From the NCBI GenBank assembly GCA_050084985.1, contig JBITNC010000001.1, positions 63,550,001 through 63,614,000 on the forward strand: a stretch of 64,000 nt of DNA. The letters run 5' to 3'. A program made the position numbers and the translations under genes. The notes under the pieces are model-generated. The model ran no database searches, was not told the DNA's origin, and worked only from the letters and a program-made list of their open reading frames with translations. This stretch comes from Nageia nagi (Eukaryota > Plantae > Pinophyta). Positions 17,213 to 57,930 of this stretch are shown one piece after another. Each line of letters begins with the position of its first letter. Position 1 is the stretch's first letter.

Positions 17213-17451
17213 GACCAGGCACATGAATTTTAACATGCACATGAATTTTAATAGCTCAAGTTGCACATATCCCTAGGTCAACCACCACATTTAATGCACC
17301 ATTTTCTAAACCAATCTTGACCGAGTGGGATGAAATGGAGCCCTAAGTTTGCTATAAAAGGGGAATAGAAACTTCATTTTGCAAACATAAAATCTGTCTC
17401 CTCCCATAGCGTGTGCACATTCCTAGAACAAGAGCGAATAAAACCTAGGGC

Positions 17452-21283: not shown

Positions 21284-21313
21284 AGTGTTGCAACTTTGAT
21301 GCAACATGCTTAG

Positions 21314-32713: not shown

Positions 32714-33096
32714 GATGTTCTTACTAGCAGCAGGGCTCCTCAAGAGTGCTATGTGGGTTTCCAGGTAAATTGACACCCATGTTGGATGTTCTTGCCTCCC
32801 AAATGCTTGCGCAAGCCCTAAGGTGGATAAATGATGATGTTTGAGCACAAAAATCTGCAATTTGCCGCTATCCTGGCACAAAAGTAGAAGAGGAGCAAGT
32901 TTTGAGTTTGAGAAAATGAGGTCCTCAAGCTTGTATTTATAGCCCATTTGGCTTCCAGCTTGCCCTAGTTGGCTAGGGTTACTGACAAAACTCATTATAA
33001 CCCTCCACCTAGTCGACCTCAAGATGTGTGCTAGCTCGGAAACTCATACCAAGCTGCTTGTGCTCGAATGTTTGGGTTTTAATACTCAACCTGGCT

Positions 33097-34058
33097 TGGT
33101 GCATGGGAAAATAAGACAAAAAGGTGACTTTTTGAACCATGCGCCAGCCCTGGGAGCTTGTATGCTTCCAACGTTGGGTATCTTGCCTTCATGTTTGCTT
33201 GCCTTGATCGCCTAACTCACCCAGTAACCTGATTTTTCCTGATTCTTGGTCTTTTAGTTGGTTGGACTTGTCAATTTTGGCATTTCATCTCAACTTGGGC
33301 AACCTGTAGACTTGGTGCATGGTTCAAAAAGCCAAGTTTGTGACTTTTTGAGGCATGCGCCAGTCTTGCCTATCCATCTAGCCTGGTCGCATGGTTCAAA
33401 AAGACAAGTTTTTGTCATTTTGAAGCATGCGCAAGCCTCCAGTTGGCCTATTTTTCGAAATTTGATTTTCAAGTGCTCATGCCTTAGCCAAATTTTGATG
33501 TTTCTCGAATCTTGGAGGCTCCATGGGCTTGGTGCATGTCTCAAAAAGTCAAAATTTTGTCTTTTGAGACCATGTGCCAACCCCTCTGGGTATACTTGAG
33601 TTGGTTTTGAGTTTCAACGTCCGGGACTTGTCAAATTTTCACCTTTGCTCAAATTGGCAGCCTTCCTAGGCTTGGTGCATGGTCCAAAAAAGCAAGATTT
33701 TGTCTTTTTGAAGCACGTGCCAGCCTCCTAGGAGGCTCATGGTCATTTTCCAACCCCTGAACTTGCTCAAGTTGCTTTCTTGACCAAATCCCATGGTTCA
33801 AAAAGATAAGATTTTGTCTTTTCAGACCATGTGCCAGCCCTGTAGTGCCTTTGACTTAGATTTTTCATGTTCAGTTTTGCTCCACTCTGCTCCTTGTGTT
33901 TGGCGCATGCCCAAGAAAGACAAGATTTTGTCTCTTGGAGGCATGCGCTGGGCTTGCAAGTGCCCAGATTCCGTCCTTGAGTCTTTCCTTCTATTTGGAT
34001 GACCCCCAAGCCCAATTGCATGGTTCAAAAAGACAAGTTTTTGTCTTTTCAAACCATG
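33097..34058. repeat. Palindrome array of unit C
   Basis: About 8 units, e.g. gcatggttcaaaaagacaagtttttgtcattttgaagcatgc (33389-33430). Confidence 0.82.
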
Positions 34059-37000
34059 GTTGGAGAGGCCTAGTTCGCTTTGATTGAGCTCTGACTCTTC
34101 CTAGACTCCCTAGTTCACCTAAGATCGACTTTTACACTTCCTAGATTTAGCCGTTTTTAAAGATTTTGGAAATCCTATCTTGATGTGACTAACCCTAGAC
34201 AAAGGGAGAGGCTTGAACTATAAGGAGTTGTCCATGAATTTGGGTCTTTGAGACACAGCTTGGGTGGGATTGATGATGACAAAACGAAGTATATACATTG
34301 ATGCATTGAGGGTCCCCAAAATCGCAGAATTTTGGGGAATTTTGTGTTTTACATTTGAATTTCGATGCATTTCCACCTTTTCTCCACAATTTAGACGCCA
34401 AAATTCATCTCTATGGATTTCCCATAGGCTCGAAAAACTGCGCCTAGGATTTGAGTGCCTTAGATTTCGTCAAAATTGTCCTAATTATGATAGAATTCAC
34501 CTTATCTCTCCAATAACATTCTTAGACTTGAATTCCGACACCATTTGCATTTATCTTTGAAAAACATGCACCATATTTCTCTCATTTGGGTCTTCAATAC
34601 TTTAGAAAAAGTGCCTTAGGCTAAGGGTACTAAAACTTGCATTTTCGGTCCATTTTCCAGACTCAATATGTGCATTTCCGGCCACTCCCGATGTTTCCGA
34701 GCTCAAGCTTGACCAAAACGCCTCTTTTCGGTACCATCGATATCAAACTTTGCATTTTTGATGATTTCCGAGATTAAATGGTGCTAAAACGACCACTTCC
34801 GCCTTTCCGAGCTCAGACTTGTCATTTTTCCATCATTTTTGGAACTTCCGGGCTCAAAGTATTCATTTTCGCCCATTTTTGGCATTTCTGGGCCTTAAGT
34901 GTGAAAAAGATCATTTCTGGCATTTTTGGCCATGTTGAGCTCAACTTTGCATTTTTGACCATTTTCAAGCTTTTCAGGTTCAAATGGTGCAAAAACGCAC
35001 ATCTTTACTTTACTGACCACTTCCGAGCTCAAAATTGATCAAAACTCGCCTTTTCGTGATAATGACCATTTTTGACCTTTCTGGGCTGATACTTGACACC
35101 TTAGCTACATCCACTGCTCCCGGACTTAAACTTGAGAAAAACGCTCATTTTCGTCACACTTGGCACTTGTGAGCTTAAAACTCTGAAAAACAACCCTATT
35201 TTTACTGACTGCACTCTAGACTAAAAATCTGTGCTCTGATACTCTATCTCAGATTCTGGCTCCTTGGCTCCAAAATTGGTGACTGGATACTTTGATACTC
35301 TTCAAGGTCTTTGTTGCAAGATCTCCTTGAATCGCTCCCTGATATCACGTTTGCACTCTTCAGAATGAACTATCCGTCGCCAAAAGCCAATCTCAAGGCA
35401 ATGCACCTGATTGCCTTTGCAAAAATAGGGTCCCCAAAATCTTCTATTTTGGGGTGTGTTGTGTGGGCACAACAAGGCCTAGTGAGCTTCCATGCTGACA
35501 ACATGGTTGAGCATGTCTTTCCTAGCTTCTACTCTTCTTCTTCTCCTTCCTCTTCTTCTCTCTCTCTTTGTAATTCAGCGTGGCCCCTCCTTGACCACCC
35601 CATCCTACATTGTATCTCGTTTGGTTGGGTGCACATGATTTAGGGCTTTGACCTCCACTTATACTTTTGTTTGGCTGGTATAGGCTTTATGTTGGGCTAC
35701 TTTGAGCCTTTTTTGGTAATTTTAGCATTCATGTACTCTCCAGACCAATTGACTGCTTTTAGTCACCTGTGGACATTAATATATTTTCTTTCTTTCTCAG
35801 TCCTGTTGTCTCTCATAGCAAGACAAAGAATAAACAAGAAGAAAAAAGCAACATATGCAAGAACTAGAAAAAGCACAGAAAACTTGGTGGAGGAGAATTA
35901 ATCTCTCACCACCCAATTTTTGATAGCTTTTCAATTTTCCCACATATACAATACAGTGGACTGGTACATTTTTAGATTAAAAGAGGGAGATGCATAGTGC
36001 ACAAAATGTCCAACATGCACTACACACTACACAAGTACTCTCATGCGAAACCCGTAACTTTTAATTGAAACAATATGTTATATCCCTACATACATTAAGC
36101 ATTAGGACTCAAGGAGGCAGTATTGATAAGTACTAGTATACACTATACATTACATTTCATTGATTTCAACAATCTATAGTTTATTCATTGGTCATACTAG
36201 CTTGGTTTTAGATCGATGTTTCATTTCTGATTGTAAGACCAGGTGGAGTAAATTTTTATATTTACATTTTTATTGATTTGCATCAGTCAGAATAAGAAGC
36301 AACACATCAATTCCAAATTATTATCTTTTTTGTTTCAGCAAAATGATCTAAGTATTTGAAACTAAAGTACATTTCTATTAGCCTGCCATACCATGGCTGC
36401 AATAAAAAACCAAAAAATTAACATAAGCCACGTAGGCCAAAAGACTATTCTTCCCCCCCTCCCTTATTGATGGGGACTATAGATGCCTAAACATAGACTG
36501 AAGCCTGCACATGGACAAGGATGCTATAGGTGCTTCACAAATATTCAGCCACATGGCGGATAAATATGAACTAGGACACCCATTCATCTTCCCTTGGCTG
36601 GCTGAAGTGCTTGAGCCACGTTTGACGTCACTCCCCATTCATTGCCAACAGCATTGTTATGTTAAACTTTGCAGTGAACTGCTCAATCTCCTTAGTTTGC
36701 TTGTGAATGTGTTTTGCAGTATCAAGGAGGCTGGAACTGCATGTTGGCTTATGTTTTAATTTGCAGGTAGTATCACCAAGTTTGCAATCGGGATCTTGTC
36801 CTTTATTGCCGTTTCTAGGTGCTTGCCCAGCTCCTTGAACCGCTTCTAATATTGTTCATATTTATTCCCCAGTTTCACGAAGTTTGAGTAGCCTGTTTTG
36901 CTTCCACCTCTTGCACTTTCAAATCCTCAAGCTCTACCAAATTCAACTTCTGTTGCATTCTATCTAGATCTTCCTCATGCTTGGATCCCATTTCTGCTTG

Positions 37001-40000
37001 CCTTCGAAAATTTTACATAAAAGCTGGTGCATCTTTACTGCTTCAACCCTTGCACCCTTGGCATCATCAGGAGCCTCATCTGTTTCTTGTGCCACATTGT
37101 CAATCTTTTTGCCCAAGCAGCAACTTAGTCCTAGGACTGTATGATAGACTGCCTCTGTGACCCCCATAGCCTTAATAAATAGAATGTTTTGGGTGGGAGT
37201 CAAGACAAGGTTGGACAAACGGACTCTTGAAATCTCCTTCTGAATAACTCCCTCTAGGATGCTGATTTGTCTGCTGACTGCTTCAAGCTTGTTCATGGCA
37301 TCCTTGAAGGACCTAGTCCCATAGGGAGCACTGAGAAGACACCCAGTTATCTTCCTTGATTAGACTTTTGGGTTGGCATGGATTTTTATTTTCGCCAGTC
37401 ATAAAATTAACAAACAAAAGGTCATTTTGCCATCACGTCTATTTTTTCCCTTTGGGGCATCTGATTATGATGTATGGAAGCCCTAGTCCCAGCAGAGTGG
37501 TGGGTTCACATACGACCTTTGATTATCGATGTTAAGGGTGCTATTAGATCCTGAAAATTTCAATTATGCGCCTGATTTTTCTGACATCTCAAGAAGGATT
37601 CCTGTCAGTCACCGTTTAACATCAATACCTCCAGCTATATTAGCAAAAAAAACATGTGATTCTAAAATGTGTGAACAGGCTTGCTTTCAAGTATATGCAT
37701 TGGCTTCAGATGAGTTACCAAATGCATTGATTGGGAAAGAAAAGGAAGAGCTTCTTGGGTCATTAATTCAAGATGCAGATAAGGAGGAGATGGTAAGGTG
37801 GAAAGGTTTGCTAGCAGAAGATGCCACTTGGTAAGGACCTGAAATCCTTATACATCCTGCCTTGAATTGCTTATGGGCAAGCAATTTGGGAGGGGCACAC
37901 TTGTAATGTCCCCATTTTAGATAGCCTTTTAATTATCATTAATGATTATATATATTAACTGAAGTGGGATCCCCTTTTTATTAAAAAATAAATAAGTGTT
38001 ATAGAAATAATAAAGTGATAGCTAATGTCATTATAAAAATAAATGGTCTTTTAATAGAAGTTATGAAGACCCAAGAAAGGGGCACCTAGTGGGAGAAGAG
38101 TGGTTGGATTAGCAAGTTATTTTTCTCTTATATAACTTGTGGAGAGAGTGTTTGGATTAGCACATTTCCTCCATCTTCTGTGGATGAAAACCTGCAAAAG
38201 AAAGAATTAGAGGATGAAACCCCTTTGGTTCTCCATTGTTGGATCCATCCGGAGTTCACATTGAGTTTATTGATTGATGGTTTGAAGATAAAAATCAGAA
38301 ATTGAGGGTTTTGGATCAGATTTGTAGATTGTAACCAAATCTGAAGTTTTTAATCAGATTTGAAGGTTTTGAGGACAAATTTATCAGATTTGAAGGTTTG
38401 ATGAATAGATCTATGGTCAGGGTTTGCTTGTGAAGATTTCTGCAATCAACTTTGAAGAGTTTCGACCGGATTTAAGGGTTGAGATCAGATTTGAGTTTAG
38501 GACCAGATCTACAGAGTTTGAAGATCAAATCTGAAATTGGTGTTCCAATCAAGCATTTGGCATCGTAATTTGGGCGTCCATCATCAAGGGTTGGATCTAA
38601 GGTTTGAGAGGCATATTTCAGGCAGGATCGCTCTTCGTAGTGAGACGTCCAGCCTTCGGGCTGGTATATGTTGTTTTTGAGGAAATTCAATTTGTATTTC
38701 AGGTGCATAATTTGTGATTTGCCCTGATCTGGATTGTACTGGAATTTCTACATAAATAAAGTAGGTTTTGTTATTGATATGCATTTTTATTTGCAAAAGT
38801 ACCTAGGGTTTGTTTGGATCTGCATATGCTTTCAATGTTATTTCAGATTTGCAATTTAAGGGTTGAATTTGAGTAGATTTGTATGCCTAGGGTTTGTATT
38901 TTTGAAGAATCTAAGTATATTCAATAATCCAAATTTACATACATTCAGTAATATTCAACAATGGAGGAAATATAAACTCATTAATCTGAATCAATAATAG
39001 AACAATAAATCACTGATGCAAATAATCTGGAACTGAATATATAAGTAGTAGAATCAAATATGTACAATCTTGAATGGAGGTCAGCTAGAACGCTTACCCA
39101 ACACACCATACTTCACTTGGTCTCTCACACCAAGCTACACATCAATATGTAACTATCCAACCAACCTAATCGCTTAAGCAAGCAGACAACTAAATACATA
39201 ACATCTTGAAGAGAACACAACAACCGGATTGTGAAGAAAATGAACAAAATATGAAAAGACTCAAAATTGGGTGAAGTGTTATGCCAATGTGGTGGTGACT
39301 GCGTTTCTGGGAAAATAGTGTAAAAAGTCAGTTTTGAGGTTGGATCTTGAAGTCAAGTTCAAGTTTGATCAAGCCCAATTTCCAACATTCTCCCCTTTGA
39401 TGCTGAAGGGACTCAGAAATGATTTCTGAAGCATCACACATGGACTGAAACAGCTTTTTTATGCCTCTTCCAATTTTGTAACAAAAAATGTAAAAGTTGA
39501 AAAGTCTTTGGTTGGCACCCACCATGTTGTTGCTTTTCAAACGGGCTGTCCATCATGCTTGCTGTCTCCTGCAAATAAAATCTCACAAATCCGGGTGGCT
39601 TTTGATGACAAACTCCCCTTTGATTAAAAAACTTTTCATCAATTTTGCGAATGGTTCTCAACAACCATATCATCACTTGATCATCAATGTCATTACCAAC
39701 GTTTATTCATGCTCTAATTGAGCAATTTCTGAACTGAACCATCTCATCATACCACCCTACAATTTCACAAATCTTCACACAAATTATACAAAACATGTTG
39801 GCCATGAAATGACTCACTACAGACGCAACTAGCGAAAATGCTTCCTACAACAAAAAGATGCTCTTCAACAAAAAATGTACTGCCAATAAATGACTGTCCG
39901 TAACTCACATCTCAGCCATGATATGACTGCCCTCTATTGCAAGAAATGGATGGTTCTTCAAAAAAATACTGTTCTCAACAAGAACTTTGCATTCCTCCTT

Positions 40001-40013
40001 CCATTGAAGGTCT

Positions 40014-41063
40014 TCAAGCACATACTGCTGTACACAACAACTTTGCACACAAAAATTCTTGCAATGTTTGCTCACAAGCACAAACTCCCAATATTGTCTT
40101 TGTAAGACAAACAACATTTTGCATAAACTCATTCAACATAACAGTATCAAAACTTTCCAACAAATGCAAACTCCTTCGAGAAATCAAGTCATCAACAAAT
40201 GAACAAATTTTCAAAAAGTCTTCACCTTCTTTCTTGAGGTATTGATTAGAGTTCCTTGTGCTTTCAATAAAGTCATACTGCTGCAAATATTTACTGTTCT
40301 CTTCCATTGTTGTTTCAAAAACAACATTCTCCTTCATAGTAAGCGTGTTGCTTGCAGCTTCTTCACACAAACAAGCTTCTTCTTTTTCATTTACTGCTGT
40401 GTTTTTCTTATTTGGACAGTCCAAAGTTGCCCCTACAACACAAAAATCACTCACAAATGCTCCATACATCGCCTTTACAAAACAAATTTCATCCTCTATT
40501 GTTTTTGGAAAGTGAAAGTCTTCAATGACTACCTCTCCAATGAGATAGTCTTTACTATTTTCTTCTTTCAACATAACATTTTTCACTTTTGAAGAGTGAT
40601 CTTCATCAAGCGAAAAATCAAGAATAGTGCTAATAGCTTTTACCTCATTTTCATCAACAAAATCTAAGCATTGATTCCACAATGGACCAGTCATAGTCTT
40701 CTCAACCAAATCAGCCTTTTCTTTAACATAGTCTTCAAGCAAATCTTCCATTTCATCTTCAACACAACAATCTTTCATGAACATTGCTTCCTCAACATTT
40801 AAATCAGCCTTTTCAAAACAGTCATCATGCATTCTTGAAGAATGGTCTTCACTCCATTTTTCCTCCATGTGCACTTCTTTGTCATTAATAACAAAATCTG
40901 GTTTGCTTTCTAAATCTAGGCATGCCTTTTCAAGGCAACAATTTACTTCTTTTGAGCAATTTTCAAGCCAGTATACTGCTAAAACTTCGTTTTCAAATTC
41001 CGGAACAGTCTTTTTAAGACATTTCTCCACTCTTTGTGAGTGGTCTTCAAGCCGGCACTTCAT
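40014..41063 (-). CDS. 349-aa acidic, Cys-rich ORF of unknown function inside the copia-type element
   Basis: Uninterrupted ORF in the track, downstream of the gag N-terminus; no PR/INT/RT motifs seen. Confidence 0.35.
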   Translation of the reverse strand: MKCRLEDHSQRVEKCLKKTVPEFENEVLAVYWLENCSKEVNCCLEKACLDLESKPDFVINDKEVHMEEKWSEDHSSRMHDDCFEKADLNVEEAMFMKDCCVEDEMEDLLEDYVKEKADLVEKTMTGPLWNQCLDFVDENEVKAISTILDFSLDEDHSSKVKNVMLKEENSKDYLIGEVVIEDFHFPKTIEDEICFVKAMYGAFVSDFCVVGATLDCPNKKNTAVNEKEEACLCEEAASNTLTMKENVVFETTMEENSKYLQQYDFIESTRNSNQYLKKEGEDFLKICSFVDDLISRRSLHLLESFDTVMLNEFMQNVVCLTKTILGVCACEQTLQEFLCAKLLCTAVCA

Positions 41064-42041
41064 TACACAACTTTCTTCTTCATTTTTCTCTCCCTTCGGA
41101 GGAAGTCCAATATGAGCATTCTCTCTTTGTAGAGAATCTTCAACAAGTGCATCCTCATTACAAACATTATTAGTCTTGTTAAGACAGTCTTCAACAATGC
41201 ACTCTTCAAATGCTCCAACAACAAAATCTAGAACAACAATGGCTTCTTCTTTTTCATTTGCATAACCTCTATCAACAGCAAATCCTCTTCTTTGTCCTCT
41301 TTCTTGAGAAGAATATAAACCTCTTCTTGGAGCAACAATGGCCCCTTCTTCTTCAACATTTTTTTTTCAAATCTGGAACAACAATGTTCCCCCTTGCTCA
41401 CAAAACAAATATTTTCTTGAGCGATTTGATCACCACCAAAACAAACTTGCAACTTTTTCCATGCTGTAAGAAGTGGAAAAAATATTTTTTTTTTCATGCT
41501 TTTTCTAATATCTAGAAGAGCCAAACAATTTTGGTGTTCCACTTTTTTTAATCTTCTTTTCTCTCCTTCAAGAGAGCTCCAATCTTCTAGTTCAGCATAC
41601 CCATCTTCAACAATTGCCCATAGGCCTTTACCCATCAACAATGTCTTCATTTTTATGCTTCAAAAATGAAAATGCTCTCCATCAAATTTTGGTAGTTGTA
41701 AAAAATTAGTGTTGATAGCCATTACACTAGAACACCAAGAAACCCCATGGGAAATCAACGAGAAAATAATTTTGTAAAATTATTTCCAAGATCCCTAGAG
41801 GTTTACTCTAACTCTCCAATCTACCATTCTTTTTCAAACCCATCAAATCAAATCAAACCAAGCTTTGATACCAGATGAAGAATCTAAGTAGATTCAATAA
41901 TCCAAATTTACTGACATTCAACAATGGAGGAAATACAAACTCATAAATATGAATCAACAATGGAGCAATACATCATTGATGCAAATAATCTAGAACTGAA
42001 TATATAAATAGTAGAATCAGATATGTACAATCCTTAATAGA

Positions 42042-42821
42042 TTTAATGTACCTTTCTGGGTTTTATCTGAATTAGCATTCAATTCCACACTTACCCAGAA
42101 ATTAGGGCATCAATGAACATGCTCAATAATCATTCAAAACATGTGCTCAAACTAGAATATAACAGCGATAGCTAAAGCTCATAGAATATACGATTATGAC
42201 CAAAACTGGGCACAAATCAGATCTGTAACATAACAAAAATATAGCTCCAAAAGTACTCAATTGGCCCAAGTCCCAAGGCAGCTCCCTAGCTTGGTGCAAG
42301 TCTCAAGATGACTACCAATGGCTTGCGCAAGCTCCCAAATGGCAAGAATGATAGGAGCAAGCTCTCCAAGAGGTGTAGAAGTGGAGATCAACCACTTCTA
42401 GGCTAGGGAATAGCCCTAAGCCCTAGAAGTAAGAGAAGGGAAGCATCCCTAAGCTCCGAATGATAAGATCGAATGCACAAGATGATGTCTTCAAATGACC
42501 AAATGCCTTCACTTTATAGCATTCCAAACTTGTCAATATGTCTTCCTAAGATGGCCGGCCAAGGAGGGAGTAATAATAAAATATTAAATGATCTAAAAGC
42601 CTCCTCATCATGGCTGATTAAGTGAGGGGAGATTAATCATATTAAATAATCCTTTTTCTTCACCAAATAAACACTAAGTATGCCCTTAGCTTAGGCGCAT
42701 GTCTCTCAGGCAAAAGTATGAATAAAATAATAATAAAATATTCCTAGTCTAAGTGCTAATGATCACAATGAATATGTAAGAGGTGTAGATGTTTAGATGT
42801 CCCAAATTTGGGGACATTACA
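42042..42821 (-). repeat. Chromovirus-type solo LTR nested in the copia LTR
   Basis: Ends t(t)taatgt...GGGGACATTACA; host LTR sequence resumes on both sides (compare 39061-39090); minus-strand TATA at ~42513-42519. Confidence 0.7.
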
Positions 42822-43928
42822 TTGGAGTTCAGCTAGGACCTGTTGGGTGGTTTTTCTTTCCTACCCTAAAGTAGTGAGAAAAGCTCCAACACTTCAAGTG
42901 AAAGGATGTTACTCCTTCCCGCTATGGGGAGTGGTCACCCCAAAGGTTAGCTCCATGTCTTGGCAGAGATAACACAGGGACTGGCTGAGATGTTTAAAGT
43001 TGCCACCAACATGAATATCATATATGGATTTAAGGGACTTTGAGTTTTGCACTTTGTTGTTTCAGGAAATTGCTAAGGGAAATAATGGGTGCGAAAGCTG
43101 AAAAAAAAAGTTTAAAATAAAATAAATTGGTAGAAAGACCGTGGGCAGTAAAATGCAACTACAGGCATGCGGATTCACGGGCTTGGGATAATATCCTCAA
43201 AAGTCAACTTGCTAGGTCTCGACGTAGGTTTCAAGCATCCTCAATCCATCCCACTAGCCAACTACACAAATTGTCTAGTGGAAGGAGCGTGAAGTTGTGG
43301 CAAGGATGGAATAGGACGGGATGGAGGTAACATTCAATGATCCAGGTGAAGTTCCTATTGTGAGCGACATCAACAAGACATTTTTAGGTATCCAAGCCTA
43401 AAATTGCAAATGACGAAATACCACAAACAAGATGCTAATCAACCACTTCATAAGATTTCCAAGCATTCTCTTATCCACTCCATACAATTTACAAGATGCA
43501 CCAAGTGATTAAAATCAACACAAAGTAGTGATAGAACAAACTAGATAGCATTGTCATTCATTCATTCGAATTCGGCATTACAACATGAGAGCATATAAAC
43601 ATAATTACATTCACATACACCACATTTAACAAATTTAGAGAATTTTTGTGTTGCAAGCAAAAGTTCCTTCAAATTGTTAAAATGTCAATTCCCCTTTACA
43701 ACTTAATCAAAATGGGGTATAAATAGTTTTTGAGCAACTAACAGTGTGTCCCTAACCCTAATTGCGAATTACGAGAAAAACAATATAGTCCAATAAAAAG
43801 TTGCCACAGGGCATCACAAGATCCCTTCTATACTTGTGGGAGCAAATCCTCATCCGTCACAAGTTTGGGAATAAAATAATATTTTATAAAGTATTTTTCT
43901 GAAAATAAAATAAAACTGAAAATAATAA

Positions 43929-46900
43929 CTAAGACGATGGTGGGCCCAAGGCCACAACTCACTCCTTGAATTCCTCATCCAGGAACTTCACTATAAGCTC
44001 CAACTCGCGCAACATCTTTGGAAATTTGGGCTTGTTCTCAACAACACAACATCCAACCTCATCAATCAGTCTCTGCATCTCGCTCTTCCATGCATGGGCT
44101 CTCATCATGTGTTGGAGGTGACTTCCAGACTGGTAGGTGTTCACATCCTTAGTCATGATCAAGCTTTGAAGAAGATGCTTGACCTTTGTCACTACCAAGT
44201 TCGCCTCCCTGATGGTGGTGTCGTCTTCTAGAAACTTAACCTGGAAGTCCATCTGTTTAATGCTTGTGTTAGCCTTGTCATTGATCATATTCACCTCTTT
44301 CTTGACCTCTTGGAAGTGGGTGACTACCTGATTGATCACACCCAAGTAGAACCAATAGTCTTCACAGAATTTGACATCTTCGGGCCTTTGACTCTGTTTC
44401 ATCTCAAATCTCACTATCCTTGGCTTCCGAGACTCCAAGATCTTGAGGAGGCTAACCCTTTCAGTCACAATGTCTTTTAGTTTTTGCTCCTCGAATGAGA
44501 CTCTTTGTAAGGCACCAATGAATTGCTCTAGCATTGTCAAAACCTCGATCACTTCTTGTTTTACCGCAATCATGCCCTCCTTGAGAGGCTTTATCCTTTG
44601 GAGCTTGTCTTGCGGTACTTTGGCAGACTCAATCTCTCGAGTCAATCTCCTCTGGGCGGCCAACTCCTTCATGAGGTTTTTTATTTCTTTCTCCTCTAGT
44701 AGCCAGTACTTGGCGATTGCCTTTGTGTTGGAAATGATTGTGTGCTTCCTTCCAACCATGCTAATGGGACCTATGTTAATGATCTGGTTTATTTGCTTGA
44801 TGTCTCCAAGGCGTTAAGGGTTGTTCTTGTCAGCAATTATGGTCTTGATGTGGACTGCACTGTCATTCATATGCACATAAGACTGACTCTTACCCGGACG
44901 AGTGGAGCTCTCTCCAAATCAGTCATTAACTTCTCTTTCTCCAAACTCCTCTCCGACGTCTATGTTAAAAACATTGAGGCACTTATCCATGTCAACACCC
45001 CACTCATGATTTGGTGATGGCTGGTGGGTCTCAATAATTGGTTCTTCAGTGTGGGTTACTTTTCTCTTAGTCCTCTTTAAAGGTCTATCTTCTTCCTCTA
45101 TTGCCCCTAACAATTGAGACCAAGATGTTCTCTTCAACTGCATCCCCCTCGATATTGACTTAGAAGCTAGCCTTTACCTTTCCTTTGGCACGTTGAAGGC
45201 TTCGATGAAGCAGGCTTATGGACTACCTTCAAAATCTCCATGGATGGAGCATCCAGGATATCATCGTGGGGACCCGTACTTGCTTCTTGTTCATTTTTTG
45301 GCTCTCTTTCACATTCATTCTCCAACTCTTCATGCTCATTCTCTTGCTCTCCTTCTGGATTGTCATCAAGTTCATACAAGGGACTAGAGGATGTAGATCC
45401 GGATGGTAGAACGACTGGGGATGGGTGTGAAGTCAATCCTCTAGGTGGTCTCTGTGGTGGTGATGAATATTTCTTTATGTTCCTGACATATCTAACCATC
45501 TTGTCAGTGGCCACATGGTCCAACTCTCTTATGTCGTGCTCATCTATGGTGTTTCTAACTTGCTGCACAATCTGCTCAAATGGATTCTTGCCATGCATGG
45601 AAGCATACTAGCCAACAGGCTCCTAAATCGTTGGGGTAATTTGGGTGACTCTGGACGTGGATTCTTGTGGTCTTCTCCCTCTTGATTGTGACCTCTTGTT
45701 AATGATAGCCTCCACGGTATGTTGTTGCTTTTGAGCATCCTCGTGCATTTTGGTACTGATTTTCTTCATCTCTACCTTGTTGCTTAAGTTCCTGAAAGGC
45801 TCCTCTTCTCTAAGTGGCTTATGTTCATAAGCTCTCTTTCTCTCCTTCATGTAGAAGCCGTGGATTCTATGCTCAAGATCATAGTGGCTTGTTGCAGGCA
45901 TTTTCTTGAAGTTGAATTTCCAAACTCCTCTCTCATGGAATCAACATCCGCCCAAGCTCTAAATTGGTATTCCCCAACTATGATCAGTAGATTCGAGGTG
46001 GTTGATTTCTTCTACCAGTCATGCTCGTGCAAGTGGGTCAACTGCCTTATCATCTCCATCAAAAGCAATTTGTTGCTCACATACATGGGTAGTTGATACG
46101 GTTCTACGGTTGATCCATAAATTCGAATGTAGGAATAGTGTTGGTGATGGATGAAGAAGTTCTCATGCTTCCTCAATGCATCTTGGGCTGAATTTGAGAT
46201 CCTAGCAATCGTGATTTCTCCTTTAAGCTCTTTATAGATCTCATACTCGCATCCATCATTCTTCATGATGAAACTATCCGATCTTCTTTCAACTTTCCAC
46301 TTAGGCTAGCACTTCTAGACAACATATGTTCTCTTTTGAATCTAGGCTGCTTCCCCTAGATTCGTAGGCTTGTACTTGCCATGAAGCAACAAGTACACCA
46401 AGTAAGAGTTGAGGTAGAACTTTCGTGTGGTCCCCATAGATGACAACTGGTCTGCAAAGGTGTTGCTCAACACCTTGCTCCACTTGATCTTCTTTCCCCT
46501 TGCAATCTCCACGATGAAGCCAAAGAACTGCTTCTTGAATTTGGATGCATTTTCTTTACCCAAGACTCTTGACAACATCATAATCATTAACTCCATGGAG
46601 GGGTAGAAGTTAGAGCGAGCGGCTTTGATGAGAGCATTCCCCTTTAGGCGATGATGTTCATCCAGCATCCAATTCCTGATGGCCACAACAGCCCTATTTG
46701 TGTCTTGATAGCACACAAGTGACTCCGCTTTAATATATTCAAAGTTTCCTTCCAAAGCCCATTGGAATGTTGTTTTGATAGCTTCGGAATTGAAGTCCAT
46801 GATGACATTCCCTTTGATGTCTTGAAGCACCCTTTCTCCCTTTTGCCAATGCTGGTTGACTTCTAGGCACAATTCTGGAAAAGTGGCTATGAATGGGACG

Positions 46901-47163
46901 AAGGCACAATTAGAGATATCGGGGAAGAACACAATGTTTTGTTTCAGCTCATTGATTTGCATACCCCATATCTTATCCCTCCTCTACATGGGGTCTACCT
47001 TTTTCCAGTCTGTATCTCTAATTGTGGCAAACCCATTCTTAGAGAACTTAGCCCCTTGGTGTAGGGTTTCTTTGCTCTCACGAATGGTAATGATGCAATC
47101 ATGCCTTAATGTTTCTAGGTCTCTTGGAAAGTCCTTGGCCGAATTGCTCTTTGAGGTAGTCAT
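43929..47163 (-). pseudogene. Long uncharacterised ORF of unit D (~1,075 codons, few stops/frameshifts)
   Basis: ORF-track pieces 46984-47172, 46342-46962, 46012-46266, 45623-45901, 45167-45598, 44919-45143 and 43959-44759 are consecutive parts of one protein. Confidence 0.87.
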
Positions 47164-47550
47164 GATGCTCAAGTGGGTGACGAAGGCCTCCAGGGGTGAT
47201 GCATTGGTTCCCCAAGCATGCTATGACTCCCACGTTGCCTTGCTTGGCCTCCCAACTCCTTGCGCAAGCCTTGCCAAGTGGTGTGGCAGATTTGGAACTC
47301 AACTTTTGTCTTCTACTTTGAAATTTGGCACAAAAGATGAAGAGGAGATGGATTTGAATTTGAGAAAAATGAGCCTTTGGGCTTATATTTATAGGCAATT
47401 TTAGGTCTCCAAGAAACCCTAGTCGGTCATGCATGAGGAGGAATTGATCTTGGTTGTCCAAATGGCCAACCTTGAGATGCATGCATGCTCAAAGTTCCAT
47501 GCTTGGCCATCGGAAATTGGATGTGGGGGGTTTAGGGCTCTTCCAAGGTT

Positions 47551-48235
47551 GGCGCATGCCCAGAAAAGACAAGGTTTTGTCTTTCTGGAGCATGTGCTCA
47601 ACTTGAGGAGGCATGCTCTTTGCTTGTCAGTTCTCCTTGCTCCCCACTTGTCCGTCTCGACCCTTCATGCTCATGATGAGACCTGAACTTATCTGATTTT
47701 GCCCTTCCTAGTGTTCTAGCTTGTCAAATTTTCACAACACACTCAACCAAAACACCCTCCAGGATGAGCGCATGTTTCATAAAGACAAGATTTTGTCTTT
47801 CTGAGGCATGCACTAGGTTGCAGATGCCCATATTGATTGAGTTTTGGCTTTCTGCTCTTACGAATTAGCCAAATTTTCACATTCTTCTCATCCTGATGTC
47901 TCCTTGGATGGTCATGCTTCACTTTATCGAACTTCAAACTTGTCTAGACGGCCTTCCAGTTTGAGTGCATGCCCCCAAAAGGCAAGATTTTGTCTTTTTG
48001 AGGCATGCACCAAGCTTAGAATACCTCTTGCTTGCCTTCTCCAACTTCAATTCCGATTCGGGCGTCCCCTAGCCCGAGCACGTCCCAGAAAGACAAGATT
48101 TTGTCTTTTTGAGGCATGCGTTGGGCTTGGAAGTGGCCCAGTTTGCTTTTCCAAACTTAGATTCCGACTTGGATGACTCCTTGGCCCGAGCACACGTCCC
48201 ATAAAGACAAGATTTTATCTTTTTGAGGCATGCAT
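47551..48235. repeat. Palindrome array of unit D
   Basis: Five clear units, e.g. gcatgcccagaaaagacaaggttttgtctttctggagcatgt (47554-47595). Confidence 0.82.
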
Positions 48236-49048
48236 TGGACCTACAAGTGGCCCAGACTCACTTGACTCAATTTCGGCTCGATGTGGGTTTGCCTATTTCA
48301 TCTAGACTCGACTTGAATTTCCATACGTAGCCATTTTTTGGAGGATTTTAGCTTTTATTCTATCATGACTAAGACCGGTCGATTTAGCACACTTAGGCGA
48401 TGGAATGATAAATGCGATTCCCAATCAAAATGAAGTCAGGAATACACAAGACAAAACATGGTGTTGCATGGACATGAGTTGCAGTGGGTCCCCAAAGTCA
48501 CGAGATTTTGGGGCGAGTTGTGTAGGGCACAACAGAACCCTCACCCAACACACCACACTTCACTTGGTCTCTCACACCAAGCTACACACCAAGATGTAAC
48601 AATCCAACCAACCCAACTGCCTAAGCAAGCTAACAACTAAATACATAACATCCCAAAGAGAACACAACAGCCGGAATGTGAAGAAAATGAACAAAGTATG
48701 AAAAGACTCAAAATTGGGTGATGTATAATGTCCACAAAATATGACTGCAGAAATGCGGTCACGTTTGGTGAAACGTGGTCACGTTTGGTACTGATGAAAC
48801 ACAGTGGCTACTGCATTTGGTACTGATGAAACACGGTGGTGAATGTGTTTTTGGGCAATGAGTGTGAAAAATCAACTTTGAGGTTGGATCTTCAAGTCAA
48901 GTTCAAGTCTGATCAAGCCCAATTTCCAACAATTTCAATTTGGGATTATTACATGTTTAAAGGAAATTTGGTGTCACAAATCTACACCTGCATCTTCCAG
49001 TATTTGTAAGTTTGTGCCCTCTCTTTCCTCTCTTCTTTCTTCCTACTC

Positions 49049-49334
49049 TTTTTGGTCTGCCTCTTGGGTTGTAGCACTGTATTTAACTTTGTTTCTTTTC
49101 CTTTGTTGGGCATGGACATTAATAATATTTCATTTCATTTGTGGGCCTGTGAAGAGAAAGTTATGACCTAAAGGGACAATAGTTGCAACATTTTTGGTCT
49201 GCCTCTTGGGTTTTTGCACTGTATTTAACTTTGTTTCCTTTCCTTTGTTGGGCATGGACATTAATAATATTTCATTTCATTTGTGGGCCTGTAAAGAGAA
49301 AGTTATGACCTAAAGGGACAATAGTTGCAACATT
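49049..49334 (+). repeat. 142-bp tandem duplication
   Basis: ttttggtctgcctcttggg...atagttgcaacatt occurs twice, nearly identical. Confidence 0.9.
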
Positions 49335-50899
49335 CAAGTCAAGGAAGGGCTGTATTGCTGATTTTTATTTTTTATTTTGAGCTTAGTTCTACATTTAGCA
49401 AAGAGATTTGCAGCAGAAAATGAATTCATCCGGTTTGTTTTTGGGGTAAGTTTGTGTGTATGCATGCACGCATGTGCTCATACAAAACTTTATATTATTT
49501 ATTCCATGTTACTAAAAAAAGCTTATTTATGATATTAACACTTTATATCTGAAAGCTTAACACTTTAAAGACCTCATGTAATCCATTTCTCCCTCACTCA
49601 ACAAAGAAATTTGCATGTTGGAGAAAAGTCATAACATACCAGCAAAATACAATCATCCAGCAGAGCAAAATTTAAAAAACTATGCAGGTTTGGTCAGCAT
49701 AGTTTTGCAATGAAGAATCTTACTTAGCATAGGGAAGCTGAGCAATCTAGTTTACAATTATGATTTAATGTTTATCAACATTTTTGGATTAAACGAATTG
49801 AAAATTACATTTGGAACACATACCATTGTACGCTAAGTCTAAAAGTTGTTCCCCTTTATTTATACCAATCTCTGTTGGTAATTATGCTTTAAACTAATTG
49901 AATACTATGGGTTTATGTTTTGTATAATGAATGACAAAAATTATAAGAAGTTACAGAAAGCACTGTAAATATCACAGCAACTAACAAAACCTACATATGT
50001 TTACAGCACGACACAATGGAGCAGCTGTTTGTCTCATCAAAATCATGACTACGTCAAATGCATTCCAGACCTGGGATGTCATTGTAACACTAGAGAGTCT
50101 CATGTCAATAAGCCATCAATCCAAACTACACTACATTCTCTATATTTATCATGGAATATATCTTCAGGCATCTGTTCATGAAAAACTCATGTAACTGAAA
50201 ATTAAATGATGCTCCCTAAACTGCTTATCAATTAATGTTTCTCATGATTACATTATTTGCTGTATGTATGATTCATCATTACATGAAACACAATGTGACG
50301 AACAGGATAACAATGCACATAGTGATCTCAATGTTGTGCATGCAATAGCGACCGACAAGGCCTTGCCTTGCAACTCATATATGCTTTGGTCTCCTAGAAC
50401 CATAGTTGAGAAAGCAGACTCGGCTCAAATTCAGCAAGGTCCACCTGAGACTCGGACTCAAGAGTTGGCAAAAAATCGGCAAAAAAATTGCAATCATTGA
50501 TTTTTTTTCATGCATATTCATATCCTTTCCTACAATTACTCAACATTCAACATCGTATACATACAAAATCATGAAGAGGAAAGGGCAAATCCTTGTATAG
50601 CAAGATACATGTTTATAACATAACAAATGCACATATTACCAAATGTCTCAATGCTCTTGAACTAATGAAAAATGTCAAATACAATGTTGATGAACACTCA
50701 TTGAGTCAATCTATGGAAGGTCCCTTGCTCGTCCTTGCCCTAGAATATATGCTCTAAGAATCCTCTCTTTTTGACTTTGTGACGAGGATCCATGTGCCTT
50801 TGCTTGTTCTAATGCCTTTTCATGTGTGTTTGTTGCTAACTCCTTTGCCATATTTTCAAATTCATCCATGGGAAAGCAAGGCTTCTTGTTTCTACTCCG

Positions 50900-53245
50900 A
50901 CACCTAATCTATGATCCATTCAGATGACGAATCAATTTATCTAGATCACTGGCCTCATAACTTGATCTTGCTATCTATCTATGGTGAAGGCAAATGTTGT
51001 AATGAACAAATGCAAGATCATTCAACTTCTTTTATATTAGTCTATTCCTCTTCTTAGAGTGTATGTGCTAAAAAACACTCCAATTGTTCTTGCAATTTGA
51101 AGTGCTACATGGCTGGCGTAAAATTCAAATGGCAAGGTGTTGTAGGTTGGTTGTGCATGCACCGAAGTCCTCCCACCATAAATCTAGAAAAAAAAAAGAA
51201 GTCAATACTTCAAGTTTAACTTCACGTGTAAAATTTTAAATTGAGGTTACTTTTTGAAACAAAATCAAAATACAAAATAAATTATAATACTAATTTAGAA
51301 TAGAGTTAACTATCCTCAAAGTTGTTAGTGCTTTAGCACACTCTGGGGATATAAGGACACCCTAGCGGCTCTTGTATCCTTTTAGTTTTGATTGTATTTT
51401 TGAAACTTGAACGGATATCTGGATCACACACTAAACGATCAATGCTTGACCAAAGGCCCACCATCTCCAAATAATCAGGATCAAAGGAAACCACGTAAAA
51501 GAATGTGGGGTAGTACCAATTGTATGAAAAGGGCTATGGAGTTGAGAAGTCCATCGCCGATCAATCATATGCCGAATGGGTTTGTATTTGACCTTGAAAT
51601 AGTTATAAAAAGAGGCAATCACCTGTTTTTCCGTACCCGTTGCCTCGTATACATAACCCATGGGTGAGTTTTCTCCATCAAGAAGGCGGAGAATTGTCAC
51701 CGAAAGCTCAGGTATCTAGAAAAAATTTCAATATTAGCAAATAGAAAATAATTTCAATAAAAAATAATTTAATAAGAAAACAAATAAAATAAAAACGTTA
51801 GTGTTGTACCTTGATGGCCTCATCCATGGCACACCACAACAACACCTCAAAAATTATGTCATAGAGATTCTTCCACTCATTGTAAGTTTTGTATTTGACA
51901 CCATTATCTAAGTTCGAATCATTGCCCACAAACATCTTCAGTGCCCCTATTCACAACAGAGGCTCTACAACGTAATGAAGGTTTGGCGAAGCGTGTCACT
52001 CTAGGCAACACTATCTCCCTCCCACTGGTATACTGCCTCATCAACTATAAGACCCATGAGTGATTATATATGTATTTTTGTGATGATCCTAGCCTTTTGT
52101 GCCTGTGCCCCACAAGCATCTTTAGTGCCCCTATGCACCAAAGAGGCTCTACAATGTAATGGAGGTTGTGGCGAAGCGTGTCACTCTAGGCTGCACTATC
52201 TCCCTCCCACTAGTTTACTACCTCATCAACTGTAAAACCCATGTGTGATTATATATGTATTTTGTGATGATCCTAGCCTTCTATATAATCTCTACCATCC
52301 AAGATAATTTCCCAATGTCCTCGAGAAGCAAATCGAGACAATGGTGTCCATATCGAGGTGGGAAATCTCTTCATCAAAATCATCCTTGCTACTAAATACG
52401 CTGATGCATTGTTCGTGATGATTTGGACAACATCCTTAGCTCGCACCTCCTTAACCACATCTCCCAGCAAACGTGAAAGCAACCCAACATTCTTAACTCC
52501 TGTGGATGCATCTCTAGTAACTTTAGGAATAAAATTCCTCTTCAAAAAGCAACAGGGAAATTAGGCAATGTCTTGCCCTTGCCATCAGTCCATCCATCGA
52601 ACATAACAGTGCATCCCATGTTCTTCCACACAAGGCAGTGATCATCAAGCAAAATATGAATAGTTTGCACATACTCATGAAGGAGAGGGAACCTAAGATC
52701 CCTGGGCAGCCTAAAACCTGTTCTGCAAGCTGGAAAGGCATCTAAAATGCCTCACCAGTATGCAGACCGTACCACATGAAATCATAGATCTGGAAAAGTA
52801 CCAAAAAGATGCCATGGCCTTCCTTGTTGCCCTGTGTCTGTCCTCATTCCACTCATCCATACCATCTAGTGTGTGCTGTTAACCTGGCATGAAACGCTCT
52901 TCAAAATAGAATGACTGTGTGCACTCCCCGTGTCTGCAATGGATGGATTGGAGCCACCGCGGTGTAGAGACCGGCTCAACTAGCTACCGTACCTTACAGA
53001 AAACGCATAGAAGGGGAGGTTGACATAGCCTCACCTTGTTTGCATTTGAGATCCCTCTTCCTCTGATAATCTGCAAGAAGTGCAATGCATTCTCTTTTGA
53101 CATCTACTGGCACATTGCTACAAACTCTCATGGCCCTTTTGTTTGGCCAATGGTATTTGAGGCGATTGATGCCTCCATGAAGTTTGTGATTACAAAATAT
53201 GCAAGTTAGTTCCCTCTTCTCACCCCTTCCTTTCCATATTTTCAC
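50900..53245 (-). pseudogene. hAT transposase remnant (BED finger, DUF659-like core, C-terminal dimerisation region)
   Basis: CIFCNHKLHGGINRLKYH; VVQIITNNAS; RRWTSQLHSPFH; QPCSTSNCKNNWSVF..IHSKKRNRL; small GT-AG intron at 51716-51809. Confidence 0.85.
51933..52280. repeat. ~185-bp tandem duplication inside the hAT transposase
   Basis: Two diverged copies of ...gaggctctaca...gcgaagcgtgtcactctagg...gatgatcctagcctt. Confidence 0.85.
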
Positions 53246-54020
53246 ATTGGATTGTTTTTACAATGTTTGCTTGTACCATTGTCCTGTAGCTGTGGATGCA
53301 AACGATCAACAAAGTATTTGAGTTAGATAAAAAAACACTATAACTAAATTTTTTTTTTATACTTATGACTCTTATTTGTTGACTGTTATAATGTTATTTG
53401 ACTGTTGACTGTTAAGAAAATAGTATAGACTGAAAATTTTTGATGACAGGCAATTAAGTGCAGTGAAGTACCTCTATGTAATTCTCTTGTGTATTTAATA
53501 TTTCTGCAAAGAGATTAGTTCATTGTTATCCAAAATTGCTAACAGAGATGATAATCAGATTGTTGTGTAGATGGTCAAGGAGAAGAATAAAATAAGGTTT
53601 GTCCACCATCCAGAAGTTGTGTGGTGTTGTGATTAAAATACAACATGCCCCAAAATCCTGCGATTTTGGTGACCCACAAACACACTATTGTATATACTTC
53701 GTTTTATCGTCATCTCGGTCTACCCAAGTTGCATCGCGAGACCCAGATTCATGGATTACTCATATTTCATAGCCTCTCCCTTGGTTAGAGTTAGTCATGA
53801 TAAAATAGAAATTGCAAAATCTTTAAAATGGCTTGAGTCTGGAAAGGGTAAAAGTCGAACCTAGGTGAATTAGGAAGTCTAAGTCAAGCCGGAAGTTGGT
53901 CAAGTCAAATTGGGCATTCCCAAGGGCTGGCACATGCTTTTTGAACCATGCAATTGGGCTAAGGGGTCGTCCAGGCAAGAGGGAAGGTTCAAAGATGAAG
54001 TCTGGGCACTTACAAGCCCA

Positions 54021-54811
54021 GCGCATGCCTCCGGGAGACAAAACTTTGACTTTCCTAGGCATGCGCCAGATACAAGAAGCATTTTGGACTAGAAGAAGGT
54101 GAAAAATCCTAAGGCAAAGACACTAGGAGGTTGGTGCATGCTTCAAAAGGACAAAATCATGTCTTTTTGAACCATGCGATTTGGCTAGGAGGACAAGTTG
54201 AGCAAGCTTGAATTTTGAAAAAAGAACCTAAGTTACCCAGGAGGGCTCCCAGTCGGAGCGGAAGTGAAAATTTGGACAAGTCATGGGCCCGGGGAACTCA
54301 AAATCAACTCAAGCATACCTAGGGGGGTTGGCGCATGATCTCAAAAGACAAATTCTTGACTTTTTGAGGCATGCGCCAAGCCTAGGAAGCTTCCAGGATT
54401 CGAGAAACATGAAAATTTGGCTAAAGCATCAACACTTGAAGACCAAATTCGGGAAAATAGGCCAACTGGAGGCTAGCGCATGTTTCAAAAAGACAAAATC
54501 TTGTCTTTTTGAACCATGCGACCAAGCTAGAGGGACAGGCAAGGCTGGCGCATGCCTCAAAAGGTCACAATCTTGAATTTTGAAAGCATGTGCCAAGCCC
54601 ACAGGTTGCCCAGATTGAAACGAAGCATCAAAATTGAAAAATTTGGCCGGTTGGAAGACCAAAAATCAAGAAAAATCAGGTTAATGGGTGAGTTGGAAGA
54701 TCAAGGCAAGCAAGCACATGACCAGGAGACCCAACGTTGGGAGCATACTCCCTCCTAGGGTTGGCGCATGGTTTAAAAAGTCACTTTTTTGCCTTTTTTT
54801 TTGTATGCGCC
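54021..54811. repeat. Palindrome array of unit E
   Basis: Units at ~54021, 54134, 54330, 54476, 54548 and 54764. GCATGTTTCAAAAAGACAA-aatc-TTGTCTTTTTGAACCATGC has 19-bp arms with one mismatch. Confidence 0.85.
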
Positions 54812-54966
54812 AAGCCTAGATGACCTTCTAGACCCTAACGTCTGGGCACAAGAGGCTTTGCATGAGCTTTCGAACCAGCACATATCTAAAGGTCGGCCAG
54901 ATGAAGGGCTATGATGAGGTTTGATAGAAACCCTAGCCGACTAGGGCAAGGTGGGAGACGAATTGA

Positions 54967-54976
54967 CTATAAATAC
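54967..54976 (+). promoter_or_regulatory. TATA box upstream of the unit E ORF
   Basis: CTATAAATAC ~220 bp before ATG 55194; equivalent boxes in C (32933-32942, -), D (47385-47394, -) and B (17352-17360, +). Confidence 0.6.
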
Positions 54977-55193
54977 AAGCTTTGGGACCTCATTTTCCCA
55001 AATTCAAAACTTGCTCTTCTACCCTTGCACCAAAATAGCAGGAAATTGCAGATTTTTGTGTCCAAACATCTTAATTTATGCATCCTAGGGCTTGCGCAAG
55101 CATTTAGGAGGCTAGCTACCATCACGTGGAGGTTATTTTCACTTGGAAACACATGTAGTATCCTTGGAGAGCCACGTTGCAATTGAAAACACC

Positions 55194-57707: not shown

Positions 57708-57829
57708 TCACAATATCTATTATATTTTATTTCATAGTTATGTTGTAAACTTTAATTTATTCTTTAATAATTCCCAAGTTTGTGATGGATGAGGATTTGC
57801 TCCCACAAACTTGGAAGATATCTTGTAAC

Positions 57830-57930
57830 GCCATGTGGCGTATTTTGATTGGACCATATTTTATTTTCTCGTAAGTTGCAATTAGGGTTAGGGTGACACT
57901 TAGGGTTGCTCTAAAACTATATATAGCCCA
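57830..57930 (+). promoter_or_regulatory. Second (LTR-type) promoter downstream of the ORF
   Basis: G-box-like gccatgtggc, reverse CCAAT (attgg), telo-box-like tagggtt repeats and CTATATATAG at 57917-57926; equivalent TATA in C (29259), D (43718) and A (7563). Confidence 0.55.

Follow-up and report, generated by a model that had tools for sequence, protein, structure and literature searches.

Probable solo LTRs with a long internal gene of predicted PMD/VANC-like fold in a single intron of the conifer Nageia nagi

The large units clustered in one intron of the adenylosuccinate lyase gene of Nageia nagi are, in what we consider a reasonably probable reading, solo LTRs of a non-chromovirus Ty3/gypsy family of conifers, with an LTR-borne predicted PMD/VANC-like gene and its likely target array. 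The window analysed here is the whole stretch of 64,000 nt at positions 63,550,001-63,614,000 (forward strand) of contig JBITNC010000001.1 (assembly GCA_050084985.1). The exons flanking the intron (5560-5628 and 60840-61031) match successive stretches (39-61 and 62-115) of the Pfam family ASL_C, confirming that all units sit in a single intron, as claimed in a preliminary description of this DNA. That description had listed five units, A to E, with a common ORF and layout and with TGTTG..CAACA ends. All five are real and share the ORF and layout by tblastx (5/5), but both ends are present in A, D and E (3/5) and not in B and C, and a sixth unit, F, enclosing C, had been overlooked (table 1). 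F, into which C has been inserted, belongs to a family that has diverged from the A-E type but keeps its termini. The units are old and divergent, DNA identity being 67-79% among C, D and E, and A and B align mostly as protein only.

In LTR sense, unit D runs along the minus strand from its 5' TGTTGTG at 48534 to its 3' ..CCCAACA at 42841. The ORF of A is 36% identical to that of D in the N-domain, and the U3 motif of A differs. Within the ORF of B, some sequence has been deleted and ~1.2 kb inserted, and no 3' end of this unit was found past the LTR element inserted at 21314. The right end of C is eroded (..GTGTTTTACA at 34353), and the ORF of E has a ~0.7-kb deletion relative to C. Every ORF copy within the window is broken, which speaks against our favoured explanation.

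Table 1. Features of the intron and its units (window positions; strand "." where none is assigned).
Feature	Position	Strand	Remarks
Host intron, adenylosuccinate lyase gene	5629..60839	+	55.2 kb
Unit A, probable solo LTR	6529..13045	-	6,517 bp; most divergent ORF; flanks alike 3/5
Unit B	15962..21313	+	LTR 5' end, array, TATA, ORF
Unit F, ORF-less LTR-like unit	25683..35474	-	TSD aagcc/aggcc; ~3.8 kb without C
Unit C, ORF-bearing probable LTR nested in F	28369..34353	-	LTR 5' end eroded; flanks 0/5 alike
Unit D, probable solo LTR	42841..48534	-	5,694 bp; TSD ggacc/gaacc; sits in copia LTR
Unit D, conserved TATAAATA and CCCTAACCCTAA, antisense to ORF	43718..43762	+	possible antisense promoter
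Unit D, conserved hairpin-like motif (GATGAGGATTTGCTCCCA core)	43825..43866	.	~1.03 kb from LTR 3' end
Unit D, decayed ORF	43957..47163	-	~1,069 codons; ~nine in-frame stops, two frameshifts
Unit D, sense TATA box (CCTATAAATA), then conserved CTCATTTT	47386..47395	-	putative LTR promoter
Unit D, putative U3 array	47550..48235	.	five copies of ~42-bp palindrome, partly at ~112-bp spacing
Unit E, probable solo LTR	53625..58823	+	5,199 bp; perfect tgtgg TSD (tgtgg/tgtgg)

That the units are LTRs is, in our judgement, highly probable. Inspection of the ends bore out the TSDs previously described for D and E; the letters match at 5/5 positions in E, 4/5 in D and F, 3/5 in A and 0/5 in C with its eroded end, and 7 of the 11 end pairs examined agree at four or five of five letters. 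The empty site of D, reported from the sister copia LTR, is indeed there, occurring once at ~39083-39092, and the absence of internal terminal repeats was upheld, similarity between the first and last 400 nt being no higher than in shuffles in all four units compared (A, C, D and E). L001, a related contig, has a unit with these ends and, after it, a PBS, a 3.2-kb interior holding a long sense ORF, and a second copy in the same orientation. The junction reads ..CCCCAACA-TAAAT-TGGCGCTAGAAGGAGGG (LTR end, spacer and PBS), the two copies (1-1293 and 7174-8467) are 90.7% identical over 1,297 nt, and the LTR end shows 79% identity to that of D over 193 nt; this pairing is a single case, in which the contig end cuts the second copy and the LTR lacks the long ORF. 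The PBS, putatively of the tRNA-Asn type although searches of the literature and of viral contigs yielded nothing to confirm this, differs from the tRNA-Met type present elsewhere in the window. Contigs from four public runs (26, 34, 5 and 2) match the end and the PBS and then diverge at 4494, and at least 31 letters on each side bridge the junction in 3 of 32 pieces, among the pieces listed. The PBS and second copy in L001, together with these junction-crossing contigs, support the solo-LTR reading put forward in the preliminary description.

As to paired units around gag-pol with a PBS, a check that had also been suggested, L001 supplies the PBS and the pair, but no ORF-bearing copy was seen to flank gag-pol and no PPT was recognized. 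The sequence before the second copy in L001, the only PPT candidate, is T-rich with no purine-rich tract, and neither gag nor RT nor integrase was found linked to the unit family; both results count against our explanation. No viral contig matched the terminal motif, the end-PBS motif, the tRNA motif or protein P0157, and a word-index search, of little power, found no long relatives. Several candidates were set aside. The joint 43763 -> 42841 resembles a PPT-LTR junction, but we read it as an insertion of one member of the family into another. Neither the integrase beside the unit of contig L011 (copia-type by eye and interrupted by the unit) nor the RT of contig L006 (chromovirus-like by eye and adjoining an LTR fragment) was accepted as linked pol. 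A protease-like motif of L001 was dismissed as not significant, since shuffles scored higher than it did.

Because the PBS fixes direction, the LTRs can be oriented, and our initial guess of an ORF antisense within the LTR was then dropped. Read in the direction set by the PBS, the ORF is sense, and ~230 nt separate its start from the conserved TATA box upstream; a strict pattern places a sense TATA between +1127 and +1411 in 9 of the 16 units or segments. Being sense and downstream of this TATA, the ORF therefore probably lies in R/U5 and not, as first proposed by analogy with MMTV sag, inside U3. The slot between the TATA and the hairpin-like motif is exchangeable among relatives, being occupied by the long ORF, by a ~190-aa ORF unrelated to it or by 293 nt. 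Comparison of the ~190-aa ORF with the C-half of the long ORF revealed no detectable kinship (hhalign probability 0.2, with 1 of 5 alignment rows in the wrong frame). The hairpin-like motif is present also in ORF-less relatives and matched no Rfam family. We are fairly confident that the long ORF is a true part of functional LTRs.

Silent changes far exceed amino-acid changes in this ORF (pS 0.47-0.87 versus pN 0.15-0.54 in 20 pairs), with an omega of 0.12 between D and E (714 codons). The earlier view of an ORF with no known family holds at the level of Pfam, no family reaching the curated cut-off in any of 12 ORF pieces, but for the "unknown gene" a VANC/PMD-like fold can now be predicted. 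PMD (PF10536), DUF1985 and Transposase_28 are absent from the 12 window pieces and 38 homologues; they are likewise missing from the 103 alignment members among the families listed (25 of 40 weak families), a point against our explanation. In D, an N-terminal domain of ~420 aa with the predicted VANC/PMD-like fold is followed by an acidic low-complexity middle and a C-part that is helical by eye. Named homologues all come from Taxus chinensis (22-26% identity). Several gene models for unrelated enzymes in the same species also include the domain as a fusion; these fusions are likely intronic copies taken for exons.

With both fold models, VANC21 (PDB 9lnk) was the sole VIA match with a Z of at least 5 among 48,161 chains (model 1: Z 6.4, rmsd 4.9, 227 aligned residues; model 2: Z 6.7, rmsd 4.8, 222 aligned residues), the next matches having Z 3.5 and 2.4. 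The two models are not independent, because they were built on a shared alignment. The alignment to VANC21 covers most of the domain, but at a Z below 8, which by VIA's own note may mean only a common arrangement, and with 7-8% identity and an rmsd of ~4.8 Å. Foldseek returned no match at E 0.001 against PDB and BFVD with either model, a PDB sequence search with the profile gave none, and the ESM Atlas gave no usable match for protein P0154. According to the available part of PMC13547354, VANC and MAIN, a PMD protein, are structural homologues. Judging from the models, the protein is likely to belong to the PMD/VANC-superfamily fold.

The palindrome upstream of the TATA has the form GCATG..AAAGACAA..TTGTCTTT..CATGC and occurs there three to eight times in 11 of 12 units, against a mean of no more than 0.12 in shuffles. 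Contrary to what we would favour, no match to the pattern exists in unit A despite its ORF, and units lacking the ORF retain the array; the contrast between the ~42-bp palindrome and the 8-9-nt VANC motifs (PMC5735166, in part) also counts against our explanation. Considering the predicted fold, the N-domain protein may bind the array of its own LTR, a proposal to which we give nearly even chances, and an action in anti-silencing is suggested more tentatively. In the mechanism that we propose, full elements would have been inserted by integrase, and LTR-LTR recombination would then have left solo LTRs. Transcription from the TATA would run through the ORF, placing it in R or U5, from where it would be copied into both LTRs during reverse transcription. 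The predicted PMD/VANC-like protein would attach to the palindrome array located farther upstream within that LTR and shield the element from silencing. In a wider and rather doubtful form of this idea, the clade might pack a VANC-like anti-silencing gene, promoter and target array in its LTR, with solo LTRs as self-activating cassettes unsilencing the family in trans; the host's main route for removing elements would then turn into one of gene spread, including within introns.

The ORF-bearing units might instead be self-standing, as LTR-derived elements mobilised in trans or as a DNA transposon with deletion derivatives. The distribution of the PBS favours such a view over ours, since the PBS follows the LTR 3' end at 1 of 15 ends with visible flank, in an LTR without the long ORF, and is missing at the other 14, including all seven ORF-bearing ends (left out before counting were L012, which shows no similarity to the units; L007, contained in L009; six matches that fit the end pattern loosely; and the eroded end L010 7464). 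The short ORF-less forms also resemble non-autonomous derivatives, and VANC itself derives from a Mutator-type DNA transposon. However, a PBS adjoins these ends both in L001 and in the public contigs, the exact terminal inverted repeat measures 5 bp only, neither Pfam families nor VIA revealed a domain or fold of a transposase or integrase, and a lone LTR has no PBS for priming reverse transcription. Self-standing units appear very improbable to us. Hardly more credible is a gene located in U3 as in MMTV sag, with the upstream TATA serving the ORF only and genomic RNA starting within ~1 kb of the LTR's 3' end. This would suit the PBS-linked LTR of L001, which has no strict sense-TATA match, and would avoid the very long first strand transfer product demanded by an R/U5 of 3.5-4.5 kb; yet within the last 1.1 kb the sole TATA that is conserved faces antisense, units without the long ORF retain the upstream TATA, 0.3-0.9 kb ahead of the hairpin, and a 2-kb R has been proposed for rice Retrosat2 (PMC3485330, as far as available).

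Keeping the same LTR anatomy, one can also envisage another job for the protein, as an integration-targeting, particle or chromatin factor or a host-gene regulator, with the array acting as an enhancer for host transcription factors. Arrays are indeed retained by units whose slot holds another ORF or none, the VANC21 match is middling, and the functions of Tat eORFs are given as unknown in the accessible part of PMC7264820. Nevertheless, the one protein matched in fold acts against silencing and binds DNA sequence-specifically, and the most divergent protein, that of A, accompanies the most divergent upstream motif, though this is a single instance and relatives have both in common. We regard these other roles as unlikely, if far from negligible.

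If our favoured reading is true, sequence-specific anti-silencing, known from DNA transposons of eudicots, would be extended to retrotransposons of gymnosperms. The role of extra ORFs in plant retrotransposons is an open question, and a VANC-like fold beside a discrete motif array makes a direct test of binding and methylation feasible. With a gene of 3.2 kb inside the LTR, R/U5 would be unusually long, and the consequence of solo-LTR formation in giant conifer genomes would be altered; length-capped LTR finders may well overlook such LTRs.

In MMTV, the sag gene lies in U3 and is duplicated in both LTRs. The duplication proposed here is similar, but the ORF comes after the promoter, is ~3 times longer and is predicted to resemble a nuclear DNA-binding protein. 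No description of an ORF inside a conifer LTR was found in the literature searched, which largely comprised sources other than subscription journals. The family is probably of the TatII or Athila type, a tentative placement since no RT or aRH was seen: the TSD, non-Met PBS and gymnosperm host would fit TatII, but also Athila. In the available parts of Neumann 2019 (PMC6317226), the PBS is of the Asp type in 37% and Asn type in 15% of TatII, and of the Asn type in 12% of Athila. TatII/OTA-clade elements share with our units the 5-bp TSD, non-Met PBS, gymnosperm host (TatII) and extra ORFs, as well as very long LTRs (up to ~5 kb in the OTA clade, up to 6.5 kb here) with tandem arrays. Sense eORFs, for which these parts list no CDD match, occur 5' in 23% and 3' in 26% of TatII (Additional file 5), the pattern that an LTR-borne ORF would give; unlike here, OTA eORFs are not placed inside the LTR in that text.

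Tat eORFs of lineages III-V/Ogre encode a PMD and a coiled coil, whereas Ustyantsev et al. give no eORF for their lineage II, which goes against our explanation (PMC4408406, section 6). Like these ORFs and the TRP28 ORFs of Retand (PMC11963269, in part), the ORF described here is a large accessory one with a predicted PMD-like N-domain and a helical C-part, and family-specific tandem arrays lie nearby. Those ORFs, in the same excerpts, are found at the 5' terminus or in the stretch separating pol from the 3' LTR and are mostly antisense; ours lies between both LTR termini, is kept in solo LTRs and has no Pfam PMD/Tr28 match. Rice Retrosat2 likewise combines an LTR of >3.2 kb, the proposed 2-kb R and an extra ORF0, and its solo LTRs outnumber full copies by 2.6:1, but it represents a different family with LTRs about half as long, and ORF0 is not placed in the LTR in the part of PMC3485330 at hand. 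With VANC21 of VANDAL (PMC5735166, in part; PDB 9lnk), the protein shares its TE-encoded nature and predicted fold (Z 6.4-6.7 over 222-227 residues), and in both systems a motif that differs among families is tandemly amplified in non-coding TE DNA. The two differ in that ours resides in the LTR of a gymnosperm retrotransposon and VANDAL is a eudicot Mutator-like DNA transposon, protein identity is 7-8%, and the VANC motifs measure 8-9 nt, compared with the ~42-bp palindrome seen here.

The five repeat units of the window (A–E) are very probably LTRs, and the proposal of the preliminary description that they are solo LTRs was supported by relatives drawn from public collections. In the metagenomic locus L001, a unit end 79% identical to that of D leads into TAAAT-TGGCGCTAGAAGGAGGG, which resembles a PBS, putatively of the tRNA-Asn type. 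Beyond it lie 3.2 kb containing a long sense ORF and then a second unit copy, 90.7% identical and oriented alike, for which no match of at least 300 nt exists in any other locus. Contigs that share the end plus PBS with the L001 junction and then diverge numbered 26, 34, 5 and 2 in four public runs from four studies; the junction itself is bridged by three of 32 pieces among those listed (31-letter rule), read depth there not being equivalent to copy number. Other observations speak against so simple a scheme: a PBS is present at only one of 15 unit ends and at none of the seven ORF-bearing ends, a PPT is missing ahead of the second L001 copy, and no pol linked to the family was seen in L001 or the other loci. 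The paired L001 element looks non-autonomous; its interior lacks RT, integrase and PPT, and the protein collection contains one close relative. When metagenomes were scanned for the terminal hairpin motif, 12 loci emerged; 11 of these, on nine records once overlaps are merged and possibly from one campaign, belong to the family and include TSD-flanked versions of 2.6–3.2 kb without the long ORF.

Pieces of a single ~1,070-codon ORF occur in all of A–E, as first described, and the ORF is disrupted in every copy. The TGTTG and CAACA ends attributed to the whole set are both present in A, D and E, one end of C being truncated by a few bases and one end of B missing altogether; the 5-bp TSDs are perfect in E and alike at four of five letters in D (whose empty site was indeed found in the sister copia LTR), with just three of five in A. 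The additional unit F, with the same termini and a TSD alike at four of five positions, is devoid of the long ORF and contains C. Nesting of family members in one another is recurrent (25683–35474 in the window; L001/L010; L005 3559–9435; L009 2097), often hits the upstream array or promoter region, and may reflect an insertion preference.

As the PBS fixes orientation, LTR sense corresponds to the minus strand of D. The order from the 5' end is terminal hairpin, palindrome array, TATA, variable slot, conserved hairpin motif and antisense-pointing TATA. The ~42-bp palindrome, a pattern derived by eye from D, occurs in 3–8 copies in 11 of 12 units, compared with a mean of at most 0.12 (maximum 2) in mononucleotide shuffles and seven matches in 31 kb outside units; unit A has a different motif. 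A sense TATA box lies at +1127 to +1411 in nine of 16 units or segments. Since the long ORF is downstream of this putative promoter, it most simply belongs to R or U5, and not to U3 as had been supposed. The strongly conserved hairpin motif, ~1.03 kb from the LTR 3' end (43825–43866 in the window), has the top summed bin depth in two of four runs compared with D and may serve as a cis signal in packaging, in strand transfer or in 3'-end formation, and the antisense-pointing TATA plus CCCTAACCCTAA could drive antisense RNA across the ORF.

The variable slot is occupied by the long ORF in A–E, by 293 nt in L010, and in four other loci (L003, L005, L006, L009) by an unrelated ~190-aa ORF that has no Pfam match and belongs to a younger-looking LTR subfamily. 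The two LTR termini enclose the long ORF in five lineages whose silent sites are near saturation, so that this ORF is an old, stable component of the unit. In all 20 scored pairs silent change is greater than amino-acid change; tblastx set the reading frames, which favours a silent excess, and a few aligned blocks fall outside the ORF. The host gene has a 55.2-kb intron here (5629–60839), flanked by consecutive adenylosuccinate-lyase exons.

Features of the window and of related metagenomic loci
Feature	Location	Strand	Remarks
Conserved TATA plus CCCTAACCCTAA	43718–43762		antisense to ORF; ~0.9 kb from LTR 3' end; also at homologous positions in A, C and E and in loci
~190-aa ORF	L003 8040–8558	-	largely open
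~190-aa ORF	L005 5472–5852	+	
~190-aa ORF	L006 7688–8206	-	
~190-aa ORF	L009 43–609	-	largely open
Interior of paired element	L001 1294–4515		~600-aa ORF; doubled protease-like stretch by eye
Chromovirus pol	640–3930	+	protease, RT, RNase H, integrase, chromodomain; 5' of host exon
hAT transposase, decayed	50400–53300	-	DUF659, Dimer_Tnp_hAT; 184-bp internal duplication
Copia-like element, decayed	21314–23923		tRNA-Met-type PBS; degenerate interior
Copia-like element, decayed	38903–48931		tRNA-Met-type PBS; degenerate interior; 5' LTR houses unit D and another LTR

No Pfam family reached the cut-off for the window ORF pieces, their homologues or the alignment members. A profile search retrieved 254 relatives at E 0.001; those with a species name are all Taxus chinensis hypothetical proteins (22–26% identity), and those without one reach 57–84%, which makes a conifer host likely. 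Several Taxus proteins are fused into models of unrelated enzymes (P0155, P0158, P0159, P0162, P0164, P0189, P0191), likely intronic copies annotated as exons; some may represent exonisation of the domain. AlphaFold2 models of the N-terminal ~420 aa of D, with X at stops (pLDDT 77.7), and of an intact relative 70% identical to it (pLDDT 75.1) had no Foldseek match in PDB or BFVD at E 0.001. VIA-align ranked the DNA-bound VANDAL anti-silencing protein VANC21 (PDB 9lnk) first for both models, which derive from a common alignment (Z 6.4 over 227 aligned residues at rmsd 4.9; Z 6.7 over 222 at rmsd 4.8), with runners-up at 3.5 and 2.4; the predicted fold match is of middling score with a clear gap to the next.

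The units most likely derive from full elements in which both LTRs carried the gene: integration produced a 5-bp duplication, and LTR–LTR recombination, which we infer to be favoured because the LTRs are long and the interiors short, then left solo LTRs. TATA-driven transcription would yield accessory mRNA from any LTR, and read-through would yield genomic RNA. The accessory protein would have the upstream palindrome array as its binding site and would maintain promoter activity; ORF-less LTRs in which the array is retained would make use of the protein in trans. The first half of this scheme has good support; binding and anti-silencing are suggested by the predicted fold and by analogy.

Extra ORFs, giant LTRs and arrays are individually known already. 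A combination of the three in which the gene lies within the LTR and has a predicted VANC-like fold was not found in the literature searched, and two large supplements of PMC6317226 may already contain such elements; the portions consulted of PMC11539532, PMC12859917, PMC12844716 and PMC5704215 have little bearing on the units. An assignment of the family to TatII, made without RT, is a guess. TatII and TatIII are described as exclusive to gymnosperms, and solo ratios as low in conifers overall, in PMC13477047, which likewise has little bearing on the units, and another study (PMC4408406) recorded no eORF for the TatII lineage (its lineage II). According to Neumann 2019 (PMC6317226), LTRs reach ~5 kb, and TatII elements have Asp/Asn PBSs and sense eORFs at either end at near-equal rates (23% and 26%), which is what an LTR-borne ORF would give.
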